Source: Escherichia coli (lineage in GTDB: Bacteria > Pseudomonadota > Gammaproteobacteria > Enterobacterales > Enterobacteriaceae). Taken from it: 64,000 nucleotides of DNA. The position numbers were made by a program, and so were the translations under genes. Below, one piece after another: positions 5,893-23,109 of the stretch. The stretch lies in assembly GCF_048403405.1 (NCBI RefSeq), contig NZ_CP183129.1. One strand, 5' to 3'. Under the pieces are notes generated by a model. It saw only the letters and a list, made by a program, of their open reading frames with translations, had not been told where the DNA came from and made no database searches. Positions within the stretch are counted from its first letter, which is position 1. Each line of letters begins with the position of its first letter.

Positions 5893-6219
5893 TCAAGGAC
5901 GTGACGGCGTAAAGATAAATTGTCTCTTCACTCCCTGACAGGGGCGATTCTTTTCAAATCGCCATTTCGCCATGGCCTTCACCACTTCATCACGAAACAA
6001 ATTATGAGGCTCTGAGCGGAGAAAAACGATCCGTGTCACAGTCCCATCAGCACCAATATCGAACTTAACCTCAACCAGCCCCTTGATATAATTTGCTGCA
6101 GCATATTCCGGATATCGTGGATACACCGTCACTAATTGCCGGGGCTCATCAGCTTTTTGCTGCGAGCATCCCACTGCCAGGACAGATAACAGAAAAAGTA
6201 GTAAAAGGCGTCTTTTCAT
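5893..6219 (-). CDS. Lipoprotein with TonB C-terminal domain
   Basis: Start ATG 6219 after AGGAAT; lipobox LAVGC; …YPRYPEYAAANYIKGLVEVKFDIGADGTVTRIVFLRSEPHNLFRDEVVKAMAKWRFE aligns with TonB C-terminal domain. Confidence 0.75.
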   Translation of the reverse strand: MKRRLLLLFLLSVLAVGCSQQKADEPRQLVTVYPRYPEYAAANYIKGLVEVKFDIGADGTVTRIVFLRSEPHNLFRDEVVKAMAKWRFEKNRPCQGVKRQFIFTPSRP

Positions 6220-6529
6220 TTTTATTCCTACGGGTCTTATTCTGACAATATATCCTGTGTTCCAGACTGCCACATCACCACATCCTGTGCCATTATCTGA
6301 CTCACATTACATACATCGCATCGGGATACAGTAGTAGCACTTTCTGTAATACAGCTTCCTGTTTCTTCCACCATCGCACCGGGATAAACCCGCGAATCAT
6401 TAACGCGGTAAAAACCCGGTGTGCATCGTTTTTAATTATCCCCGCACACTCGCGCAGAGGAGTCTCCCTGTCGGGCTGCGGTCTCTGTTAATGAGGGAAT
6501 ATAGCGACGATACGGCGCATCAACAAAAC

Positions 6530-7003
6530 TTATTTCAGGCACTGAGTGCGGATATAGTCCTGTGCCCCTTCCAGTTGCTTGTGCATCGTCATCAGCCGCT
6601 CTCTGAGGGTGAAATAATCCCGTGTAACGGTGTCTGCCAGTTGGGGGCCGGTTGCATTATCCACGCCGGAGGTGGTGGGGGCTTCACGCACGGAGCCTGG
6701 ACAGGTGGCGTTGATCCGCAGGCGCTTACGACCAGCGGCAACGTCAGCGCGAAGAGTTTCATTTTCAGCTCTCGCATCGGCTAATTCCCTCGAGTATTTT
6801 GCATCGAGCGCAGCAACATCGCGCTGGCGCACCTGCATATCAGTAATGGTTGCGTTCGCCAGCTTCAGTTCACTGGCTTTGTTATCGCGCTGCGCTTTGT
6901 AGGTAATCGCGTTATCACGGTAATGGTCTGTTGCCATCCACAGCGCACCACAGGCCACCAGCAGAATAACGATAAACGCGGAAAGCATTCGGTTTATGTT
7001 CAC
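6530..7003 (-). CDS. Rz i-spanin
   Basis: 157 aa; [14 protein letters not shown]…DYFTLRERL…QLEG matches lambda Rz. Confidence 0.9.
6592..6777 (-). CDS. Rz1 o-spanin lipoprotein, embedded in Rz in +1 frame (true start probably internal MKLFALTL)
   Basis: [10 protein letters not shown] lipobox and [14 protein letters not shown] proline-rich motif as in lambda Rz1. Confidence 0.8.
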
Positions 7004-7484: not shown

Positions 7485-8018
7485 TTATCTGTCGATACCC
7501 CAGCACGCCAGCGCGCTCTCCTGGTCACGACGGGATACCTGACCGTAACAGTTGTTTGAACGAATACGGCAGTCTCTGCCACCGTCCTTAATCCACCAGC
7601 GAATCGCTTCGCAGGCACCTTTTCGATCACCAGCATTAATTCGTCTGTAAAACGTCGACGGGAAACACTTACCGGGATCAATGTTGTACGGACAGAATGA
7701 CGCGATCCCCGCTTTCTGGGGTTCGGTCAGCGGCACTCTGATGTTTTTCTCCACCCACGCCAGCGCTTTATCACGCTCAATGGCGTTAACCTGGTCGCAT
7801 TTTTCCTTCGACAACTTCATGCCCGGAACGACAGGTTTGCCATCCACCATGATGGCACCACGGCAGATGGTCCAGATACCTGCACCATCACGGTATGCCG
7901 TGGTGTGGTTGCCTTCCTTTTCATCCAGAAACTGGTCGAGAATGTCAGGCGCAGGCGCACCAGCGGCAATCAGCGCCAGAACGGCAGCCGACAGGCCGTA
8001 TTTGATTTTGGTGTTCAT
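7485..8018 (-). CDS. SAR endolysin (T4-lysozyme-like, phage 21 R type)
   Basis: N-terminal hydrophobic SAR segment YGLSAAVLALIAAGAPA; E-x8-D-x5-T catalytic spacing in EGNHTTAYRDGAGIWT. Confidence 0.85.
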   Translation of the reverse strand: MNTKIKYGLSAAVLALIAAGAPAPDILDQFLDEKEGNHTTAYRDGAGIWTICRGAIMVDGKPVVPGMKLSKEKCDQVNAIERDKALAWVEKNIRVPLTEPQKAGIASFCPYNIDPGKCFPSTFYRRINAGDRKGACEAIRWWIKDGGRDCRIRSNNCYGQVSRRDQESALACWGIDR

Positions 8019-8054
8019 GGATATATTAAATATTCAGCCGCTGTCCCTGGCCCA

Positions 8055-8945
8055 CTAAATACGCACTTTAAGATAAGTCAGCCCCGGATGAAGCCAGTAA
8101 GCCGGCACTTTTTTAAAGGGTGGAGTATTAAAATCACGAAGAAGAGCCTCCCGCACAATTGCATCCTTATCAGCACCACTGGCCAGCGCTTCAATCTCAG
8201 CGGCTACCTGAAGATATCCCATGCAACGGCCAACGCGCTTCATCAGCCCCTGCTTTTTATTGTTCTTCAGGTAATCAATGGCAAATTCAATGAGCTCCTC
8301 ACTGTGCTGGTGCGATGGAGGTGTTACTTTCCCATTTTCTGAGATGGTTATTTTCCCAGCATCACCGGATACAACAAAGGATGGCCGGTTACACTCCCAT
8401 TCCGGGTCACTGAAATTATCATTATGAATACTGAAACACTCTGCGAGATTTCTGCTCATCACTTTCCGACAATAATCGTCAAACGCAGCAAACTGCTTTT
8501 CATCGCCAGAAGGCACCAATATCGACCATTTCTTATTCAGCTCAACGACGTAGCTCTCCAGTTTTTCAATACGTGATTCAACATCATCTTTTTCTGACCG
8601 CAGTGTTGACGGCGGCATCTTCAGAGAACAAGTAATTCTTCCCGGTAGCTTTCCTTTGTAGGTTATCAACATATCCTGCGCCTCTAAAATTACGGGGCGC
8701 TTTTCCGGCAACGGTTCGTTCCATTCACATAACCCGGCAGCAACATCCATGAAAAACTGCTTCGCCTGCTTTTTCGCCTCAGCTTCGTAAAACTCCAGCG
8801 TGGCACCTTCAGTACGGTCAAGACTAATCGCCACATCTGGCAACAACAGCGACGCTTGCCCGTCACCTTCCGACTTCACAGTAACAGTAACCTTATCCCC
8901 GTAATTATTTATCCCCTTAACAACCAGTTCATATTTTTTATTCAT
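8055..8945 (-). CDS. Hypothetical 296-aa protein inserted between holin and endolysin
   Basis: Long ORF, ATG 8945 four nt after holin stop with GGGGAGAG upstream; ends 36 nt before endolysin; no TM segment, no motif I recognise. Confidence 0.7.
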   Translation of the reverse strand: MNKKYELVVKGINNYGDKVTVTVKSEGDGQASLLLPDVAISLDRTEGATLEFYEAEAKKQAKQFFMDVAAGLCEWNEPLPEKRPVILEAQDMLITYKGKLPGRITCSLKMPPSTLRSEKDDVESRIEKLESYVVELNKKWSILVPSGDEKQFAAFDDYCRKVMSRNLAECFSIHNDNFSDPEWECNRPSFVVSGDAGKITISENGKVTPPSHQHSEELIEFAIDYLKNNKKQGLMKRVGRCMGYLQVAAEIEALASGADKDAIVREALLRDFNTPPFKKVPAYWLHPGLTYLKVRI

Positions 8946-8949
8946 CACT

Positions 8950-9165
8950 TTACTCTCCCCGCGCCGCCTTACGCCGGTCCTCTTTGATTTTGAAATACAG
9001 GTTAGTCAGATATGTCAGCAGCCCAAACAGCAGACTCCCCAGCACGCCTATTGCCGCCCACTGAGACGGGGAAACCCTGTCCAGCAACTGCAGGAACCAG
9101 TAGCCCGTTCCCACCGCTGACGTGGTGTATGACACACCTGTTGTGATTTTTTCCATCTGGTACAT
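8950..9165 (-). CDS. Class II holin, phage 21 S21 pinholin type, dual-start motif MYQM
   Basis: [71 protein letters not shown] matches S21 as I recall it; two Met three codons apart. Confidence 0.85.
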
Positions 9166-9198
9166 ACCCCGTCTCCCGTTATCCGGAAGCTGACAACA

Positions 9199-9229
9199 AT
9201 AAAAAAGCCACCAGTTAAGTACTGATGGC
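9199..9229 (-). terminator. Hairpin plus U-run upstream of holin (Q-dependent read-through terminator candidate)
   Basis: GCCAUCAGU / ACUGGUGGC stem (one G-U) followed by UUUUUU on minus strand. Confidence 0.4.
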
Positions 9230-9472
9230 TCTGATAACTCATGCAGGCGTCTCAGACGCCCCACTGACACTACCGGTGAGTTTAACGATACCTTCCATTT
9301 GACTGGCTCACTTTTTATGATGATGCCGGTGCATTTATCTCCAGCACCAGACTTTCTATCTCAACGCCATACGTTGCATTTTTGGTAATATCCGTCAGCG
9401 TCAGTGCATTTAGTCCCACTGCCAGACCGTCTTTTATGGCCTGGAATGCCGGGCCAGTACGATGACGTAGTA

Positions 9473-9661
9473 TCACTCCGGCTCAGTTGCACCACTGACC
9501 ACCACATCACCTTCTGCTGCAATCGCCTGCATCAGGGTATAAGGGGTTATGGCCACCGGACTACCAAACGGCTGCCAGCCCTCTTTCAGTTTATGTGTCA
9601 GCTTTTCCGCAAGATCTGACGGCGACGCCGCCCTGACAACATCATAGTGTTTAAATGCCAT
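9473..9661 (-). CDS. Small conserved phage protein (possibly DUF1737-like)
   Basis: ATG 9661 preceded by GGTGGAAAG; MAFKHYDVVRAASPSDLAEKL…; family assignment from memory only. Confidence 0.5.
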   Translation of the reverse strand: MAFKHYDVVRAASPSDLAEKLTHKLKEGWQPFGSPVAITPYTLMQAIAAEGDVVVSGATEPE

Positions 9662-9921
9662 GGTTCTTTCCACCATCTGAAAAATGATTCTTTAAAATAC
9701 CTGACATGTAATACAGAAAAAACACAAAACCATACCTTAAATAAAAACCTCATCATCAAGCAGATATGCATGGATAAACTACAAGACGAGATATAAACCA
9801 CCCTGCATTTAAATAAACAATAAACAACATCAGAAAAATAATTCTGCTCTATGGTTTACAATCAAAAATATCATTTATACTTTTCAGAACATCACCAGCA
9901 AGGCATAAACAAGGAAACTAA

Positions 9922-10257
9922 ATGAAGTGGATTGTGATTGATACAGTTATCCAGCCATCATGCGGAATATCTTTTTCAGTCATATGGAGTAAAATAAAAT
10001 TAATAATCTGGTATCAATCGGATGCTTTCTTACCTCCTGAAAGTATATTTACACTGACTCACACAGGTATCATGCTCAATAACAAAGTGCTACCTGTAAC
10101 CATTTACAACGTAGTACCATTCAATAAAACATTCTGGAATTTAATCAAAAACAGCCAGGAATGCCCTACAAATACAGATAACGTATTGAATGAATGCTTT
10201 AATAACCGTTGCACTCTGCAAATATGTCCTTATGGGCTAAAACAACAAAGTCCATAA
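9922..10257 (+). CDS. Hypothetical protein (111 aa), AT-rich moron on opposite strand to late operon
   Basis: ATG preceded by AAGGAAACTAA; strongly AT-rich relative to flanks; candidate promoter TTTACA-15nt-TATACT upstream; GC hairpin downstream (10295..10316). Confidence 0.5.
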
Positions 10258-10614
10258 GGAGTTTACTCACATCTGACAAAATCAATATAAACAGCCCCTC
10301 CGGAGAGGGGCTGGAGAGTGGCGCTATGTGCCATTGCATGGTGCCGGGTGCCTCCCGGTGAATTCAGTACCAGCACCTGAATCCGCGATTATCCCATATA
10401 CCTACTCGCTGATTGCCCCTCCGCACAGGGGGATTCACCATGCCAGTTTCTTTTAACAAACTCCCCGCAAACCAGACAACAGTCAACCGCCTGAATTGTG
10501 AAGTATTTAAAAATTTCTCCCGCTAACTGATACCCGGCTAACAGTCTGGCGTTTTCTTTTTCAGCAACGGGAAAGCAACAACCACCACACCCACCAGCCG
10601 CCCATTTACCACAA

Positions 10615-10639
10615 ATAAAAAAGCCTTCAGGACTGAAGG
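10615..10639 (-). terminator. Rho-independent terminator after small HTH gene
   Basis: CCUUCAG/CUGAAGG stem followed by U-run on minus strand. Confidence 0.55.
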
Positions 10640-10824
10640 TGTCTGTAACAACCAAACTGATAGTCTGCCAGACCCGCCATAACAAGCTGGGTCAGTATTA
10701 ACTGGCAGCGTTCGCGTGAAAGGTAAGTATTCTGTGCAATCTCCCTGACTGTCGCCGGGTCGGTAACGCTTAATTCATTAAACACCACTCTGGCGGCTTC
10801 TGTCATATCCTGCTGTTTTAGCAT
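10627..10824 (-). CDS. Small putative winged-helix/HTH protein (65 aa)
   Basis: Internal ATG 10824 with GGAAAAGGGAAAAAG upstream; the ORF-track start at 10959 abuts a terminator U-run with no RBS; …TVREIAQNTYLSRERCQLILTQLVMAGL. Confidence 0.45.
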   Translation of the reverse strand: MLKQQDMTEAARVVFNELSVTDPATVREIAQNTYLSRERCQLILTQLVMAGLADYQFGCYRHLQS

Positions 10825-10947
10825 GTCTTTTTCCCTTTTCCGGTTAACGTGACATACCAATAACTCTTGTCGAAAAAGCCGGCAAGCTGAAAGACCCGTA
10901 TTCGCAACCACCAGCGCGTTTACTGTACTGACGCGATTTTCGGACAT

Positions 10948-10976
10948 AAAAAAAACCACCTGGCGGTGGTTTTTTC
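10948..10976. terminator. Bidirectional rho-independent terminator just downstream of Q (tR'-like candidate)
   Basis: AAAAAAAACCACC-TGGC-GGTGGTTTTTT: perfect stem flanked by A-run and T-run. Confidence 0.6.
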
Positions 10977-11036
10977 TTACTTTGCCATCACGTACAAAAT
11001 CGGCAAAATATCAGATTTATACGAAACATACGCGAT

Positions 11037-11726
11037 TTAATTGACTTTTGCAATATCTCGTCGTGAAAAGGTCGCTTTTTGTTGCGCTCTTATTTTCACG
11101 GAGCAAATCAAGGATTCTCTATCGAGGCGCTTAAAAATATCGCACATCTCACGCCAGTAGTTCGCATAATTATGGCTCCAGTTATCAGGCTTAACTCCAC
11201 ACAGTCTGGCAAGCTCCTGTCTCTGGTAGACCTCACACCCGGTAACCCATCCTCTGACATCCTGTGCCGCCAGCCAGATCAACTTCTTCACACGCTCCAG
11301 CGTTTTCACTGCAATTTTTCTGGAGCCGGACTGAGTTTTAAATTCACTCCACCCCCACTGCGTTATCGCGATCTGATGCTCCCAGCAAATGTTTCCGCCA
11401 TAACACCACAACAACCACGCCTTCTGATGTTCTTCCAGTTCCAGAACAGCACGCCGCCACGATGATGTTGCAAACTCAACAGGACTGACCAGCGCAATTG
11501 ATGAGCCTTTCGCCAGTGATTGTTTACCCTGGATCGGGGGATTATCCCGCGTGATCATTTTTCCGGTTACCTCATCGCGGTAACGAATTTTTTTGCGTCT
11601 GTAACGCCCTGTATCGAACAGGGCATTTTCCTGCCAGGCTTCCAGCTGGCATTTTGTCGACCCACTGAGATCTGCAGTGGCAATCATGAGTTGCTCACGA
11701 ACAAACTGTAAATACTGGTTATTCAT
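11037..11726 (-). CDS. Late-gene antiterminator Q (phage 82 / Qin quuQ type)
   Basis: ATG 11726 with GAGGTG upstream; MNNQYLQFVREQLMIATADLSG…; position between rusA and tR'-like terminator. Confidence 0.75.
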   Translation of the reverse strand: MNNQYLQFVREQLMIATADLSGSTKCQLEAWQENALFDTGRYRRKKIRYRDEVTGKMITRDNPPIQGKQSLAKGSSIALVSPVEFATSSWRRAVLELEEHQKAWLLWCYGGNICWEHQIAITQWGWSEFKTQSGSRKIAVKTLERVKKLIWLAAQDVRGWVTGCEVYQRQELARLCGVKPDNWSHNYANYWREMCDIFKRLDRESLICSVKIRAQQKATFSRRDIAKVN

Positions 11727-12087
11727 GCACACCCACCTCTGTAATTCTTATCTCCAGCCGTCCACCAGATACTGGCTGGCCACGTACAATATTGATTTCA
11801 TCAAACTGCTCATCGTCCATTAACAACCCCGCGTGCGTCAGCGCATCCAGTGGTGCTTTCAGAATATTGTCCAGGTCACGACGACGCTTATCCGGTGGCT
11901 CTGCAATAATTTTTATTGCCAGCCGTCCGGACAGGCTTAATTTCAGTCGCTGCTGGCGAACAATAAGCGCCACTGCCCGGCGATAACGCTCCCCGGCTTT
12001 TGATACAAAATATGTGCTGCCACGGCGTCGCCAGTAAGTGTTCACCGTCGGCGAGTAAGGCAAAACAAATTCTATGCGTTCGGTCAT
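11719..12087 (-). CDS. rusA: Holliday junction resolvase RusA
   Basis: 122 aa; …RRRDLDNILKAPLDALTHAGLLMDDEQ… with catalytic acidic residues as in RusA. Confidence 0.9.
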   Translation of the reverse strand: MTERIEFVLPYSPTVNTYWRRRGSTYFVSKAGERYRRAVALIVRQQRLKLSLSGRLAIKIIAEPPDKRRRDLDNILKAPLDALTHAGLLMDDEQFDEINIVRGQPVSGGRLEIRITEVGVHE

Positions 12088-13146
12088 TTATGCTTTCCAC
12101 TTCAGAACACCCGAATTTCTCGCGTGCATTAAAAAACGAATCAGCAACAACAACTGACTACCGTGTTTTTCTTCAAAATCTTTTACCCCGGCGTGTAGTT
12201 CGTTATGGCATTTACGACACAGCGGAATAACAAACAAATCGTCAGCCTTTGTTCCCATCCCTCCCAGTCCATGACCAATGATGTGATGCGGATCATCTGC
12301 CTGATTGCCACACGTCATGCATTTCTGCGTTTTTACCCAGCGCGTGTATACAGGCATCTCTTCCCGTTGTGGTTTCTGGCGCTGGAGATACTGAGCCGGA
12401 GATTCCGGATCAACGGCAATGCTGACCACCGTCTTTTCCTGTGGTGGGTTCTGTTGCTGGTGGGCGTGAGGCAGCGGCGCAAGATTTTTTGTGCGCTGTT
12501 TCAGTATGCTGGTGGCGGTCTGCTCTCCCGGTACGATGTCGCTTTCACGGTACATTGAGCGGATTTTTTCCGCACGCAACCCCAGCGAACGACGTAATAC
12601 CGCTTCCGGTAGCGCGTCCGCCACCTGATTGCGGACCGCCCACCAGGATAATTCAGCCAGCGATAATTCCCGTTCCTGCGAGCCATTCATTGCATGGCGT
12701 ATGACGTCAATCATCCATGCAGACAGGTTTTGGTGAGCAAGTTGCCCGAGTGATTCGGAGGTCTGGTCGCGCAGCTGGTTGTCGCAGTGCCAGCACAACA
12801 CCATTGCGCCGGTACCATAACGGTGAATGACGGTTTCACTGTGGTGATAATCGCCGTGTGGCCACTGGCAGGATTTAACATGGCGCAGTAACCAGTCAGA
12901 CAATGCGCCAGCGCCACCAGCAGCACGAATCACTCGTTCGTCGCTGAAAAATGGCAGTAATGATTTATCCTCCGCCAGCGGCTGGCGAACGGCAGGAACG
13001 ACCCCGGACGACAGATTACGCATGCTTTTCGGTTCCGGCTCCACCAGTACCCGGGTATTGTGGAATACCGGCATGGATTCACGGCCCGGTTTTAGCACCA
13101 CCAGCCCAAGTTCCGGTACCAGAACAGGTCGAAGTAATACCCGCAC
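12088..13146 (-). CDS. DUF968-type phage protein (YdfU-like) with C-terminal HNH-like zinc motif
   Basis: 352-aa ORF; CMTCGNQADDPHHIIGHG…CRKCHNELH; sits next to rusA/Q as ydfU does in Qin; start (GTG 13146 vs ATG 13074) uncertain. Confidence 0.7.
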   Translation of the reverse strand: MRVLLRPVLVPELGLVVLKPGRESMPVFHNTRVLVEPEPKSMRNLSSGVVPAVRQPLAEDKSLLPFFSDERVIRAAGGAGALSDWLLRHVKSCQWPHGDYHHSETVIHRYGTGAMVLCWHCDNQLRDQTSESLGQLAHQNLSAWMIDVIRHAMNGSQERELSLAELSWWAVRNQVADALPEAVLRRSLGLRAEKIRSMYRESDIVPGEQTATSILKQRTKNLAPLPHAHQQQNPPQEKTVVSIAVDPESPAQYLQRQKPQREEMPVYTRWVKTQKCMTCGNQADDPHHIIGHGLGGMGTKADDLFVIPLCRKCHNELHAGVKDFEEKHGSQLLLLIRFLMHARNSGVLKWKA

Positions 13147-13960: not shown

Positions 13961-14116
13961 TTACTCCTCAGGTTCGTAAGCTGTGAAGACAGCGACCTCC
14001 GTCTGGCCGGTTCGGATTCGTACCTCGCAGAGGTCTTTCCTCGTTACCAGTGCCGTCACTATGACGGTTAAACAGATGACGATCAGGGCGATTAACATCG
14101 CCTTTTGCTGCTTCAT
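13961..14116 (-). CDS. Hok-family type I toxin (51 aa)
   Basis: Below ORF-track length cut-off; my translation MKQQKAMLIALIVICLTVIVTALVTRKDLCEVRIRTGQTEVAVFTAYEPEE is the canonical Hok/HokD sequence. Confidence 0.85.
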   Translation of the reverse strand: MKQQKAMLIALIVICLTVIVTALVTRKDLCEVRIRTGQTEVAVFTAYEPEE

Positions 14117-14129
14117 AGCCTGCTTCTCC

Positions 14130-14235
14130 TTGACCTTTCGGTCCGTAAGAGGCTAATCTCTATGTGTCGCATAGATATGGCCTCAGATTAATGTTAAGCG
14201 TCTTGCAGGACGCGTAATGTTAACTGGGGCTTTTC
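14130..14235 (+). ncRNA. Putative Sok-like antisense RNA with its promoter, antisense to hok leader
   Basis: TTGACC-17/18nt-TAATCT promoter on plus strand overlapping hok translation start; short hairpin GCGUC…GACGC downstream; inferred from hok/sok architecture. Confidence 0.3.
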
Positions 14236-14374
14236 TCTATCTGCCTTTTGGTGTTCATGCCTGAGACAGATAGCCTCAAGCACCCGCAGTTATTCTACTT
14301 AACTAAGATTTCCCCGCAAACCGTTTTTGTCCGGCACAGTAAATATCCAACTAAACCAATGGCGTTCGCTGTAT

Positions 14375-22282: not shown

Positions 22283-22581
22283 TTTATTCACAGGTGAGGT
22301 AGAGTGCGTGCGCCGGACACGGATAAGAATCCGGCACTGACAGTTTACTAAAAAGGATATATCCCTGAAAAGTCAGGGCATAACACGAAAGCGCCCGGCG
22401 AAGTTAGTCTCTCTGTATAGGTCGTCGTTAAATTTAATTCGATCGTGCGCTTCCGGTTGTGGCAATCCGCGAAATGGCGCGGCGGTAAGTATGGCTGGGG
22501 TTTCCTCCATTGCTCCAGAAAATGCACCGGGTTGTCAGGTTGACCATACGCTTAAGTGACAGCCCCGCCACAATACCCATG

Positions 22582-22633
22582 TGTAGTCTTTGGTGGCATC
22601 AGTTCTACTCCGTGACTGCTCTGCCACCCTTTT
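22582..22633 (+). ncRNA. dicF: DicF-like small RNA
   Basis: GGTGGCATCAGTTCTACTCCGTGACTGCTCTGCCACCC + TTTTT closely matches the K-12 DicF sequence as I recall it, with compensating stem changes; sits between ydfA-like genes and dicB. Confidence 0.75.
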
Positions 22634-23109
22634 TAAAGTGAATTTTGTGATGCGGTGAATGCGGCTAAGCGCACGCGGAACAGTTAAAACCAAAAACAGT
22701 GTTATGGGTGGATTCTCTGTATCCGGCGTTAATTGTTAACTGGTTAACGTCACCTGGAGGCACCAGGCACCGCATCAACAAAGTTCACTTCGGTGATGAA
22801 AGGTAAGAGAAAATGTTGAATGTAGCTATTGAAAACCAGAACGGGTGGAATTATAGTGCACCTGCACCTCATAAAACGGGTGCCGGGCGTGGAAACCCGG
22901 AATTCAATCAAGCGCATAACCGCGCTCAGGCGGTTTTTTTATGCGTCAAGCACAGCCACATTCAGATTATGGTGGGGCGTGCAGGGCAGCTGCAAGGCTG
23001 GCCGGATTCTTGGTTGACCGGTATTTCCACCCCTGTACGCCTCACCACCCTTATGGTCGTGGAAAACCTTGGTGGTGAGTTATTAATACTCAACCAAGAG
23101 GCTGCCATT

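Follow-up and report, generated by a model that had tools for sequence, protein, structure and literature searches.

What fills the interval between the antiterminator gene Q and the holin gene of this Escherichia coli prophage, and what does its AT-rich 111-aa open reading frame encode? The window, i.e., the whole 64,000-nt stretch of DNA that was analyzed, carries a lambdoid prophage that adjoins potC/potB and has a minus-strand late operon. The gap on the late strand, which an earlier sequence-only reading had put at 1.8 kb, measures 1,871 bp between Q (11037–11732) and an S21-type holin gene (8950–9165), both on the minus strand. We read this gap as a mosaic of modules in which the 111-aa frame corresponds to iraL and is a moron for lysogenic conversion whose function is known, and give this reading a probability of about 0.88. 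In the direction of late transcription, the proposed order would be a candidate late promoter, followed by a short leader that is conserved and by a terminator of the tR' type; a late gene for a 65-aa, possibly winged-helix protein; a small RNA of the STnc100 family that ends in a strong terminator of its own; a 630-bp AT-rich iraL cassette with the opposite reading direction; both ends of a deleted nanS-p esterase gene; and one more hairpin, followed by the holin gene.

The 111-aa frame lies opposite the late strand, as previously described (9922–10257, plus strand), in a tract of 30–35% GC compared to about 48–55% in the flanks, and 111 stop-free codons would arise from base composition alone with a probability of about 2.5e-4. 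Its product shows 100% amino acid identity to IraL of strain CFT073 (WP_000871291.1); at the DNA level, the two genes differ at two synonymous positions, without any amino acid change. The protein exceeds the cut-off of the NCBIfam model for IraM, NF007393 (162 bits versus 121; residues 1–110 of 111), and has a structural homolog in PDB entry 8TWD (IraM; E 9e-32), whereas a search of Pfam-A returned no family. Identity to K-12 IraM is 62% (66/107 residues), which agrees with the ClustalW value of 58.9% for IraL and IraM in the IraL paper (PMC4045071). The complete identity to CFT073 IraL, set against 62% for K-12 IraM, places the protein on the IraL branch, and the published iraL 5'-RACE sequence, which is also present in the promoter/5' UTR of the window, points to the same branch. 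Thus, judged by its sequence, the gene is iraL, an already characterized gene. RefSeq labels the gene of the window as IraM, although the allele is that of IraL, which is regulated differently. The sequence-only reading had instead suggested a new stx-like lysogenic-conversion factor of unknown function. The gene does sit in the slot that holds stx in Stx phages and has no Pfam-A model, but its product is identical to a characterized RssB anti-adaptor, passes a curated NCBIfam model and has a solved structural homolog, so that a new factor is almost certainly not what is encoded here.

According to the IraL paper (Hryckowian et al. [quoted passage not shown] IraL of the window would be expected to bind RssB and to protect RpoS from ClpXP in the same manner: bound at its N-terminal receiver domain, RssB could not hand RpoS over to the ClpXP protease, and RpoS would build up even in log phase.

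The iraL promoter (9855–9889, plus strand) comprises TTTACA at 9855–9860, a −10 element TATACT at 9876–9881 and a start at 9889, to which the published 5'-RACE sequence ACATCACCAGCAAGGCATAAACAAGGAAAC maps (PMC4045071); TATACT thereby spans −13 to −8. This plus-strand start was mapped in the lysogen CFT073, and the iraL deletion can be complemented with a fragment that spans −100 to +33 (PMC4045071). The own promoter proposed for the 111-aa gene thus has an experimentally mapped counterpart and a plus-strand transcript in a lysogen. Between the window and CFT073, the promoter region differs by SNPs at −28 (A in the window, T in CFT073; adjoining TTTACA), −1 (A and G, respectively) and +31; none of these changes affects the −10 element, the start site or the ribosome-binding site. 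In this strain, iraL is probably expressed, and a sigma-70-type promoter of its own would drive its transcription during prophage repression. A PhoP-box-like repeat in reverse orientation (9810–9826) matches at 11/12 positions; we treat it as no more than a lead, since DNA this rich in A/T should contain such sites anyway (14 at ≥10/12 in the window).

The moron cassette itself spans 630 bp (9663–10292) from the STnc100 terminator to the nanS-p start, and its G/C content of 32.5% contrasts with 48–55% in the neighboring genes. Comparison with related phages defines its boundaries. PhiR5_1 aligns to 10973–10293 and then to 9662–9504, and JLK-2012 to 10604–10327 and then to 9654–9442; both share the two flanks and, in place of the cassette, have an unrelated spacer of about 170–230 bp. 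The cassette is found in 1,445 of 5,426 complete E. coli genomes, 1,427 of which hold at least 80% of it, and among the carriers the junction is intact in 1,418 genomes on the STnc100 side and in 1,384 on the esterase side. The junctions, and hence the antisense orientation within the late operon, are the same in roughly 97–99% of the carriers. In prophage PP5 of EPEC E2348/69, the same iraL adjoins an intact esterase gene. The frame is thus conserved in roughly 1,430 genomes, in addition to the 62% amino acid identity of K-12 iraM. With the plus-strand start mapped in the lysogen CFT073, neither of the two outcomes that would have counted against the earlier reading, absence of such a transcript and lack of conservation, applies. 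The start mapped in CFT073 falls on nearly identical sequence here (three SNPs) and would supply the cassette with a promoter of its own. A factor-independent terminator of its own on the iraL plus strand was not found: the only hairpin downstream of iraL is the STnc100 terminator at 10292–10313, which on the plus strand is followed by GAGAGTGG and no T-run. Because related phages with the same flanks lack the cassette and carriers nearly always share its junctions, the cassette, by the comparison of these sequences, behaves as a moron, in agreement with the earlier view of the AT-rich gene as an inserted unit of deviant composition. That stx or tRNAs occupy this slot in other lambdoid phages is seen in relatives; the tRNAs are present there only in relatives, and a tRNA search detected no tRNA genes in the window.

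On the late strand, the cassette is preceded by a predicted small RNA of the STnc100 family, which is PasD-related (10283–10472, minus strand; Rfam RF02076, 132.4 bits versus a gathering score of 47). It is matched over the whole model (positions 1–206), and its 3' end coincides with the hairpin at 10292–10313, which is the most stable of the gap (dG −20.3). Neither this hairpin nor the small RNA appeared in the sequence-only reading. CFT073, PhiR5_1, JLK-2012 and 640R1 each carry this element at the corresponding place. Related STnc100 copies have been detected by qPCR in outer-membrane vesicles of STEC, and both STnc_100 primers of that study match the window in a by-eye comparison (PMC12370729). 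PasD2 of E2348/69 has no BLAST match in the window. iraL and STnc100 are convergent and have one terminator hairpin in common.

On its other side, the cassette is followed by the remains of a nanS-p/SASA-family sialate esterase gene. A 5' remnant with the DUF1737 domain (9476–9661, minus strand; Pfam E 4e-17) covers positions 1–58 of the 634 of PHROG 143, is annotated by RefSeq as "incomplete, missing C-terminus" and shares 97% identity with the 5' end of yjhS in JLK-2012; a 53-aa ORF (9315–9476, minus strand) covers positions 582–632 of the same family and forms the 3' remnant. By this comparison, the two ORFs are the two ends of one deleted nanS-p gene. Window positions 9457–8947 align to 6146–6656 of JLK-2012 L004, and the deletion within the gene is therefore about 1.5 kb. 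Similarity of E2348/69 to the window ends at 9312. Downstream follows a terminator-like hairpin with a T6 run, 39 nt before the start of the holin gene (9204–9232, minus strand; 12-bp stem, dG −18.6, z −4.2), which is kept in CFT073, JLK-2012 and PhiR5_1. A PasA/PasC-type sRNA was considered for this hairpin and rejected, since PasA, PasC and PasD2, cut from E2348/69 by the coordinates of Table S6 of PMC8550237, have no BLAST match in the window. The holin, named "class II holin family protein" by RefSeq, is the first gene of the lysis cassette (Pfam PF04971, E 7e-33).

A second remnant lies on the far side of STnc100, where RefSeq annotates a 15-aa CDS of a DUF3927 small membrane peptide gene (10538–10585, minus strand); the full gene is annotated by RefSeq in CFT073 and other records. 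Since neighbors of iraL have decayed, by internal deletion of nanS-p and truncation of DUF3927, selection on the region is not uniform. Such decay, together with the promoter SNPs at −28, −1 and +31, could also indicate that the gene is iraL by sequence but a silent or decaying passenger that adds nothing to host RpoS control; the second iraL copy of JJ1886 (iraL2) carries a −35 point mutation, the effect of which is not known according to the IraL paper (PMC4045071). However, the coding sequence is intact and free of amino acid changes relative to the functional CFT073 allele, the −10 element, start site and ribosome-binding site are unaltered, and 1,418 of the 1,445 carrier genomes have the cassette with an identity of ≥95%. 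We therefore consider a silent passenger very improbable and retain iraL as a gene that is probably active in the lysogen.

At the upstream end of the gap, Q (Pfam PF06323, E 2e-82; RefSeq start at 11726) is immediately upstream of the putative late control unit. The identical RefSeq record names its product "bacteriophage antitermination protein Q", and a search of solved structures gave no homolog at E≤0.01. A candidate late promoter PR' (11025–11053, minus strand), overlapping the Q stop codon, consists of a −35 element TTGCAA (11053–11048), a 17-nt spacer and a −10 element TATGTT (11030–11025). In two phages with a Q about 77% identical, TTGCAA is invariant and the −10 element reads TATATT. 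The promoter matches the consensus at 8/12 positions and, owing to this score, was not listed by the terminator/promoter scan; its assignment and its function as PR' are suggested by this match together with its conservation. It is followed by the conserved leader of a predicted PR'-tR' transcript (10976–11018, minus strand), which is 95% identical to PPompW_132418 and holds a 35-nt identical run, the longest of that alignment, compared to 77.5% identity of the Q coding sequences. The predicted transcript of about 73 nt (11018 to about 10945) would end at a tR'-like intrinsic terminator (10945–10975, minus strand) with an 11–13 bp stem and T8, whose hairpin at 10950–10975 has a dG of −16.7 (z −5.4). 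A terminator at this position is kept directly 3' of three unrelated Q modules, and the two differing positions of the stems both preserve pairing (CCACC/GGTGG versus CCCGC/GCGGG). Hence, the hairpin at 10950–10975 is likely the tR' terminator. After induction, Q-modified polymerase would presumably read through all four hairpins of the gap.

Rfam matches over PR'-tR' (isrK 19, Phe_leader 28 and STnc370 36 bits) are far below the gathering scores and were taken as chance. StxS-like pairing of the predicted RNA with the rpoS leader was rejected as well, as the best duplex (−78 to −45), although matched by only about 4% of shuffles, lies outside the DsrA/RprA/ArcZ site, which we take to be at roughly −119 to −97. 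Qin of K-12 (ydfT/quuQ) also has a PF06323-type prophage Q and a similar gene order; no DNA similarity to the Q region of the window was detectable.

Next on the late strand is the 65-aa gene (10627–10824, minus strand; PHROG 331, E 5e-36), which had been noted as a small HTH-like ORF. The gene is well supported, while the HTH character of its product is only weakly indicated: many of the 304 homologs are called "TrmB family" in their source records, but the match to Pfam TrmB PF01978 reaches 19.4 bits versus a gathering score of 25.6, and the AlphaFold model (pLDDT 62, three helices) is too poor for a fold search. The protein may thus be a small winged-helix protein. A homolog is located directly after Q in a Stx2a phage. 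Conservation begins at MLKQQDM and does not include the upstream extension; a 106-aa ORF extended to a start right after tR' was discarded accordingly, as its N-terminal 40 residues are unconserved among homologs. At the stop codon, a hairpin with a T6 run (10624–10639, minus strand; dG −6.8, z −0.9) is matched by 36 of 200 shuffles and is thus no more stable than shuffled sequence. It lies at a mosaic joint, where similarity to CFT073, JLK-2012 and 640R1 begins at about 10596–10604.

Are these hairpins brackets that insulate autonomous moron cassettes, as the sequence-only reading proposed? Terminator-like sites are enriched between 8000 and 12500 (14 versus 4.1 ± 1.8 in shuffles), and hairpins fall on the mosaic joints at about 10975, about 10600 and 10292. 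However, the first is directly 3' of a conserved promoter and leader beside Q, which is the standard position of tR', the second is as stable as shuffled sequence, and the third is the 3' end of the STnc100 model. Moreover, iraL has no upstream hairpin on its own strand, and the downstream one that it shares with STnc100 lacks a T-run in this direction. Two of the three terminators originally listed are clearly stable (10950–10975 and 9204–9232) and the one at 10624–10639 is not; bracketing of each cassette fails for iraL. We regard a terminator pair around each cassette as unlikely and consider that the hairpins are better read singly, as a probable tR', one hairpin at shuffle level, the terminator of an sRNA and one more hairpin before the holin gene.

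Within the mosaic with iraL as its moron, an apparent unknown conversion factor becomes a named gene, a result that is chiefly of value for annotation; in growing cells, IraL increases the level of RpoS. The IraL paper describes iraL as less common in commensals than in uropathogenic, prostatitis and Shigella isolates and places it only on a "potB genomic island" (PMC4045071). The prophage of the window uses the same potB/potC attachment site as this island of CFT073. Beyond what is described in the available text of that paper (PMC4045071), we find that the mobile unit is a 630-bp cassette, that it is fixed between the STnc100 sRNA and nanS-p in the late region of lambdoid prophages, and that it is present in about one complete E. 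coli genome in four. As the gene itself was already known, this is an incremental refinement and not a discovery. One could speculate, with considerable doubt, that the constant antisense orientation within the late operon, together with the hairpin shared with the convergent STnc100, makes iraL output a read-out of the prophage state. IraL would then be made only while Q is absent, and induction would bring Q-modified late transcription through the cassette and shut off iraL by collision or antisense, lowering RpoS protection of the host. Separately, and just as doubtfully, the 35-nt invariant leader of this Q family might act as a StxS-like trans-acting sRNA and not only as a Q-loading site.

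The closest known system is CFT073, where the IraL protein is identical and the promoter/5' UTR nearly so (three differences from −120 to +36). The neighbors of iraL are also the same, namely STnc100 to one side and, to the other, the DUF1737 remnant and the holin. The modules upstream are not shared: CFT073 combines another Q with an IS200 element and three tRNA genes, and the window has the PF06323-type Q and the 65-aa gene. K-12 IraM (YcgW) resembles IraL in length and in fitting NF007393, and its gene is likewise AT-rich (34% GC). However, IraM is a PhoP-induced anti-adaptor for Mg2+ starvation and makes contact with both domains of RssB, of which IraL touches the N-terminal one only (PMC4045071, PMC10844676). 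The genes are alignable over the coding region only (71% nucleotide identity) with unrelated promoters and flanks, and iraM is located beside e14 and not in a Q-holin slot. Evidence for a relic of the same slot around K-12 iraM was not found: outside the coding sequence, the flanks of iraM have neither similarity to the window nor an Rfam match.

STnc100 of the window, to which the PasD sRNAs of EPEC/EHEC prophages are related, has the position known from Stx phages, downstream of the stx slot. In Stx phages it is immediately upstream of nanS-p, while in the window iraL is inserted between the sRNA and the esterase gene. The putative late control unit would follow the layout of lambdoid PR'-tR' transcripts, with a promoter over the end of Q and a strong terminator about 70 nt further on; the short PR'-tR' transcript of lambda is 6S RNA. 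The length of about 73 nt predicted here is close to the 74 nt of processed StxS (PMC7547250); StxS, however, goes with a 144-aa Q, whereas the RNA of the window is a prediction and goes with a PF06323-type Q of about 230 aa, and the sequences are unrelated. With regard to the late region as a whole, iraL differs from classical morons in being antisense to the late operon and in lacking a clear terminator of its own. Classical late-region phage morons include bor and lom of lambda. Like these and stx, iraL is an extra unit of deviant G/C content between conserved phage genes, with a probable promoter of its own, predicted expression in the lysogen (as mapped in CFT073) and absence from close relatives.

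The AT-rich 111-aa ORF on the plus strand opposite the late genes (9922-10257) is real, as a run of 111 stop-free codons has P ~2.5e-4 given the base composition of the cassette around it. Its product belongs to the IraM anti-adaptor family, with 162 bits in NCBIfam NF007393 (cut-off 121). It shares 62% identity with K-12 IraM, and a structure search hits the solved IraM chain 8TWD (E 9e-32). Several RefSeq E. coli chromosomes carry 100% identical DNA annotated as "anti-adapter protein IraM" (WP_000871291.1), an accession also assigned to the protein of uropathogenic strain CFT073; direct comparison with CFT073 showed an identical protein and two synonymous differences in the DNA. Hryckowian et al. 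2014 (PMC4045071) characterised the CFT073 gene as iraL: its deletion lowers log-phase sigma-S and halves the sigma-S half-life, IraL co-purifies with RssB, contact is limited to the RssB N-terminal domain, and the authors report 58.9% identity between IraL and IraM. Thus, the gene which the sequence-only reading had proposed as a conversion factor of unknown function is the known gene iraL, and its mechanism is known as well.

The iraL 5′-RACE sequence published for CFT073, ACATCACCAGCAAGGCATAAACAAGGAAAC (PMC4045071), occurs once in the window and places the start site at 9889, 33 nt before the ATG; TATACT occupies 9876-9881. Relative to CFT073, promoter and 5′ UTR carry changes at −28, −1 and +31 (9861, 9888 and 9919); the −28 change, A for T, adjoins a TTTACA element. 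A PhoP-box-like direct repeat in reverse orientation (TGTTTA-N5-TATTTA, 11/12; 9810-9826, minus strand) lies 63-79 bp upstream of the start and could be a chance match in AT-rich DNA. K-12 iraM is PhoP-induced, whereas PhoP control of iraL is not among the reports.

Pairwise comparison with related phages set the limits of the iraL cassette at 9663-10292 (630 bp, 32.5% GC), comprising promoter, coding sequence and 34 nt of tail up to the terminator hairpin of the small RNA STnc100. GC content is 30-35% over ~9650-10300 compared to 48-55% on both sides. Phage PhiR5_1 aligns to 10973-10293 and again to 9662-9504, and phage JLK-2012 to 10604-10327 and again to 9654-9442; in both, an unrelated spacer of ~170-230 bp replaces 9663-10292, and the sialate esterase gene nanS-p comes straight after STnc100. 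In the window nanS-p (9315-9661, minus strand) survives as two remnants, its 5′ end as a DUF1737 ORF (9476-9661) and its 3′ end as a 53-aa ORF (9315-9476), with ~1.5 kb of this SASA-family gene deleted between them; other strains, e.g., EPEC E2348/69 (PP5), have an intact esterase gene beside iraL. K-12 iraM is alignable in its coding region alone (71% nucleotide identity), and its flanks are different. Insertion between genes adjacent in relatives and deviant composition both mark the cassette as a moron; a promoter of its own is supported by the start site mapped in CFT073, where expression in the lysogen has also been shown (PMC4045071). The moron interpretation thus holds.

In a set of 5,426 complete E. 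coli genomes, the cassette is found in 1,445, and 1,427 have at least 80% of it. The STnc100 junction (201-bp probe) was covered in 1,418 and the esterase junction in 1,384 of the 5,426 genomes, and on these counts the cassette site and antisense orientation are therefore essentially fixed.

STnc100 itself (RF02076; 10283-10472, minus strand) is a full-length match with 132 bits (gathering score 47). CFT073 and phage vB_EcoS-640R1 likewise have it ahead of iraL; the phage (our L005; 3124-3317 and 3593-3781) carries two tandem copies upstream of iraL, with 138 and 132 bits. In Stx2 phages STnc100 follows stx2B at a distance of 75 nt (PMC12370729), and a preprint from 2026 links it to the PasD sRNAs. 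CFT073 has another Q module, and the stretch upstream of its STnc100 is taken up by an IS200 element and three tRNA genes. The partial pseudogene that RefSeq lists at 10328-10456 (plus strand; "hypothetical protein") lies wholly antisense to STnc100 and is probably a spurious call.

The prophage is lambdoid, occupies about the first 28 kb and has its late genes on the minus strand, in the order RusA (11719-12087), Q (11037-11732; PF06323, E 2e-82), a gap of 1,871 bp, an S21-type holin (8950-9165), a DUF1327/YdfR-like ORF and lysozyme. Its integrase adjoins potC, the same attachment site as that of the iraL-bearing "potB island" of CFT073, and ~28100-64000 is core chromosome (potC, potD, cobB, nagK, lolCDE, mfd, ndh and others). 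NZ_OX030728.1 is 99.99% identical to the window across the 48 kb of the comparison. The 297-aa ORF between holin and lysozyme genes (8055-8948, minus strand), labelled a truncated YdfR pseudogene in RefSeq, aligns with PHROG 1085 over its full length (E 1e-189, positions 1-296 of 296) and could be a complete phage gene of unknown function. In the early region, DicF (61 bits), an isrK-like RNA (69 bits) and a C4 antisense RNA (78 bits) follow each other at 22578-23052 (plus strand), all above Rfam gathering thresholds. A sok antitoxin RNA (14114-14285, minus strand; 107 bits) adjoins hokD, with rem and a DUF968/YdfU gene close by; this gene order is similar to K-12 Qin, but the two Q regions share no DNA similarity.

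Within the gap, the small late-strand ORF described as HTH-like is a real 65-aa gene (10627-10824, minus strand; PHROG 331), although its HTH character is weakly supported. Conservation among homologs starts at MLKQQDM, and the longer reading frame was therefore rejected as coding. In an Stx2a phage the homolog sits directly behind Q, before a methylase gene, tRNAs and stx2.

Terminator-like sites are frequent in 8000-12500 (14 versus 4.1 ± 1.8 in shuffles). The bracketing by terminators proposed from sequence was only partly right. Two of the three named minus-strand hairpins are clearly stable, 10950-10975 (dG −16.7, z −5.4) and 9204-9232 (dG −18.6, z −4.2), but 10624-10639 (dG −6.8, z −0.9) is no more stable than shuffled sequence despite its following T6 run. 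The most stable hairpin of the gap, the STnc100 terminator (10292-10313, minus strand; dG −20.3), had been missed, and no terminator private to iraL is evident, the plus strand after the shared hairpin reading GAGAGTGG. Transcription of iraL that passed this hairpin would run antisense across 10328-10456. Between the 9204-9232 hairpin, which is kept in relatives, and the holin start there are 39 nt. This hairpin is neither PasA nor PasC, whose E2348/69 sequences give no blast hit in the window.

In the lysogen, transcription from the late promoter PR′ presumably ends at its terminator tR′, and STnc100 and iraL would be driven by their own promoters; as a hypothesis, transcripts arising within the slot may be kept off the lysis genes by the 9204-9232 hairpin together with the STnc100 terminator. 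IraL would tie up RssB via the receiver domain, and growing cells would thereby have their RpoS shielded from ClpXP. Once the prophage is induced, Q-modified polymerase can be expected to pass all four hairpins and to run antisense through iraL and on into the lysis genes. Experiments have established only the biochemistry of IraL and its start site in CFT073 (PMC4045071); the other steps follow general knowledge of lambdoid late control.

Downstream of Q we compared two phages, PPompW_132418 and vB_EcoM-606R7, whose Q genes are 77.5% identical to that of the window. TTGCAA (11053-11048, minus strand) is invariant in all three; 17 nt further on, the window has TATGTT and both phages TATATT. 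The leader that comes next (43 nt, 11018-10976) is 95% identical and includes a 35-nt identical run (11018-10984), which is the longest in the alignment. The hairpin after the leader differs in sequence between phages, with two changes that preserve pairing, and a tR′-like hairpin occupies the same position behind three unrelated Q modules. From this conservation we infer that 10976-11053 and the hairpin constitute PR′, a short leader of ~73 nt and tR′. The region (minus strand) is a candidate for a ~73-nt PR′-tR′ RNA or for a Q-loading site of the PF06323 Q family, which is without a solved structure.

Overall, the finding is real but ordinary: the gene is already known, and the remaining gap elements belong to described families. 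Its least ordinary features appear to be the fixed antisense iraL converging on STnc100 and the invariant leader downstream of a PF06323 Q; the proposed PR′-leader-tR′ unit would be the analogue of the StxS-producing unit in Stx phages (PMC7547250).
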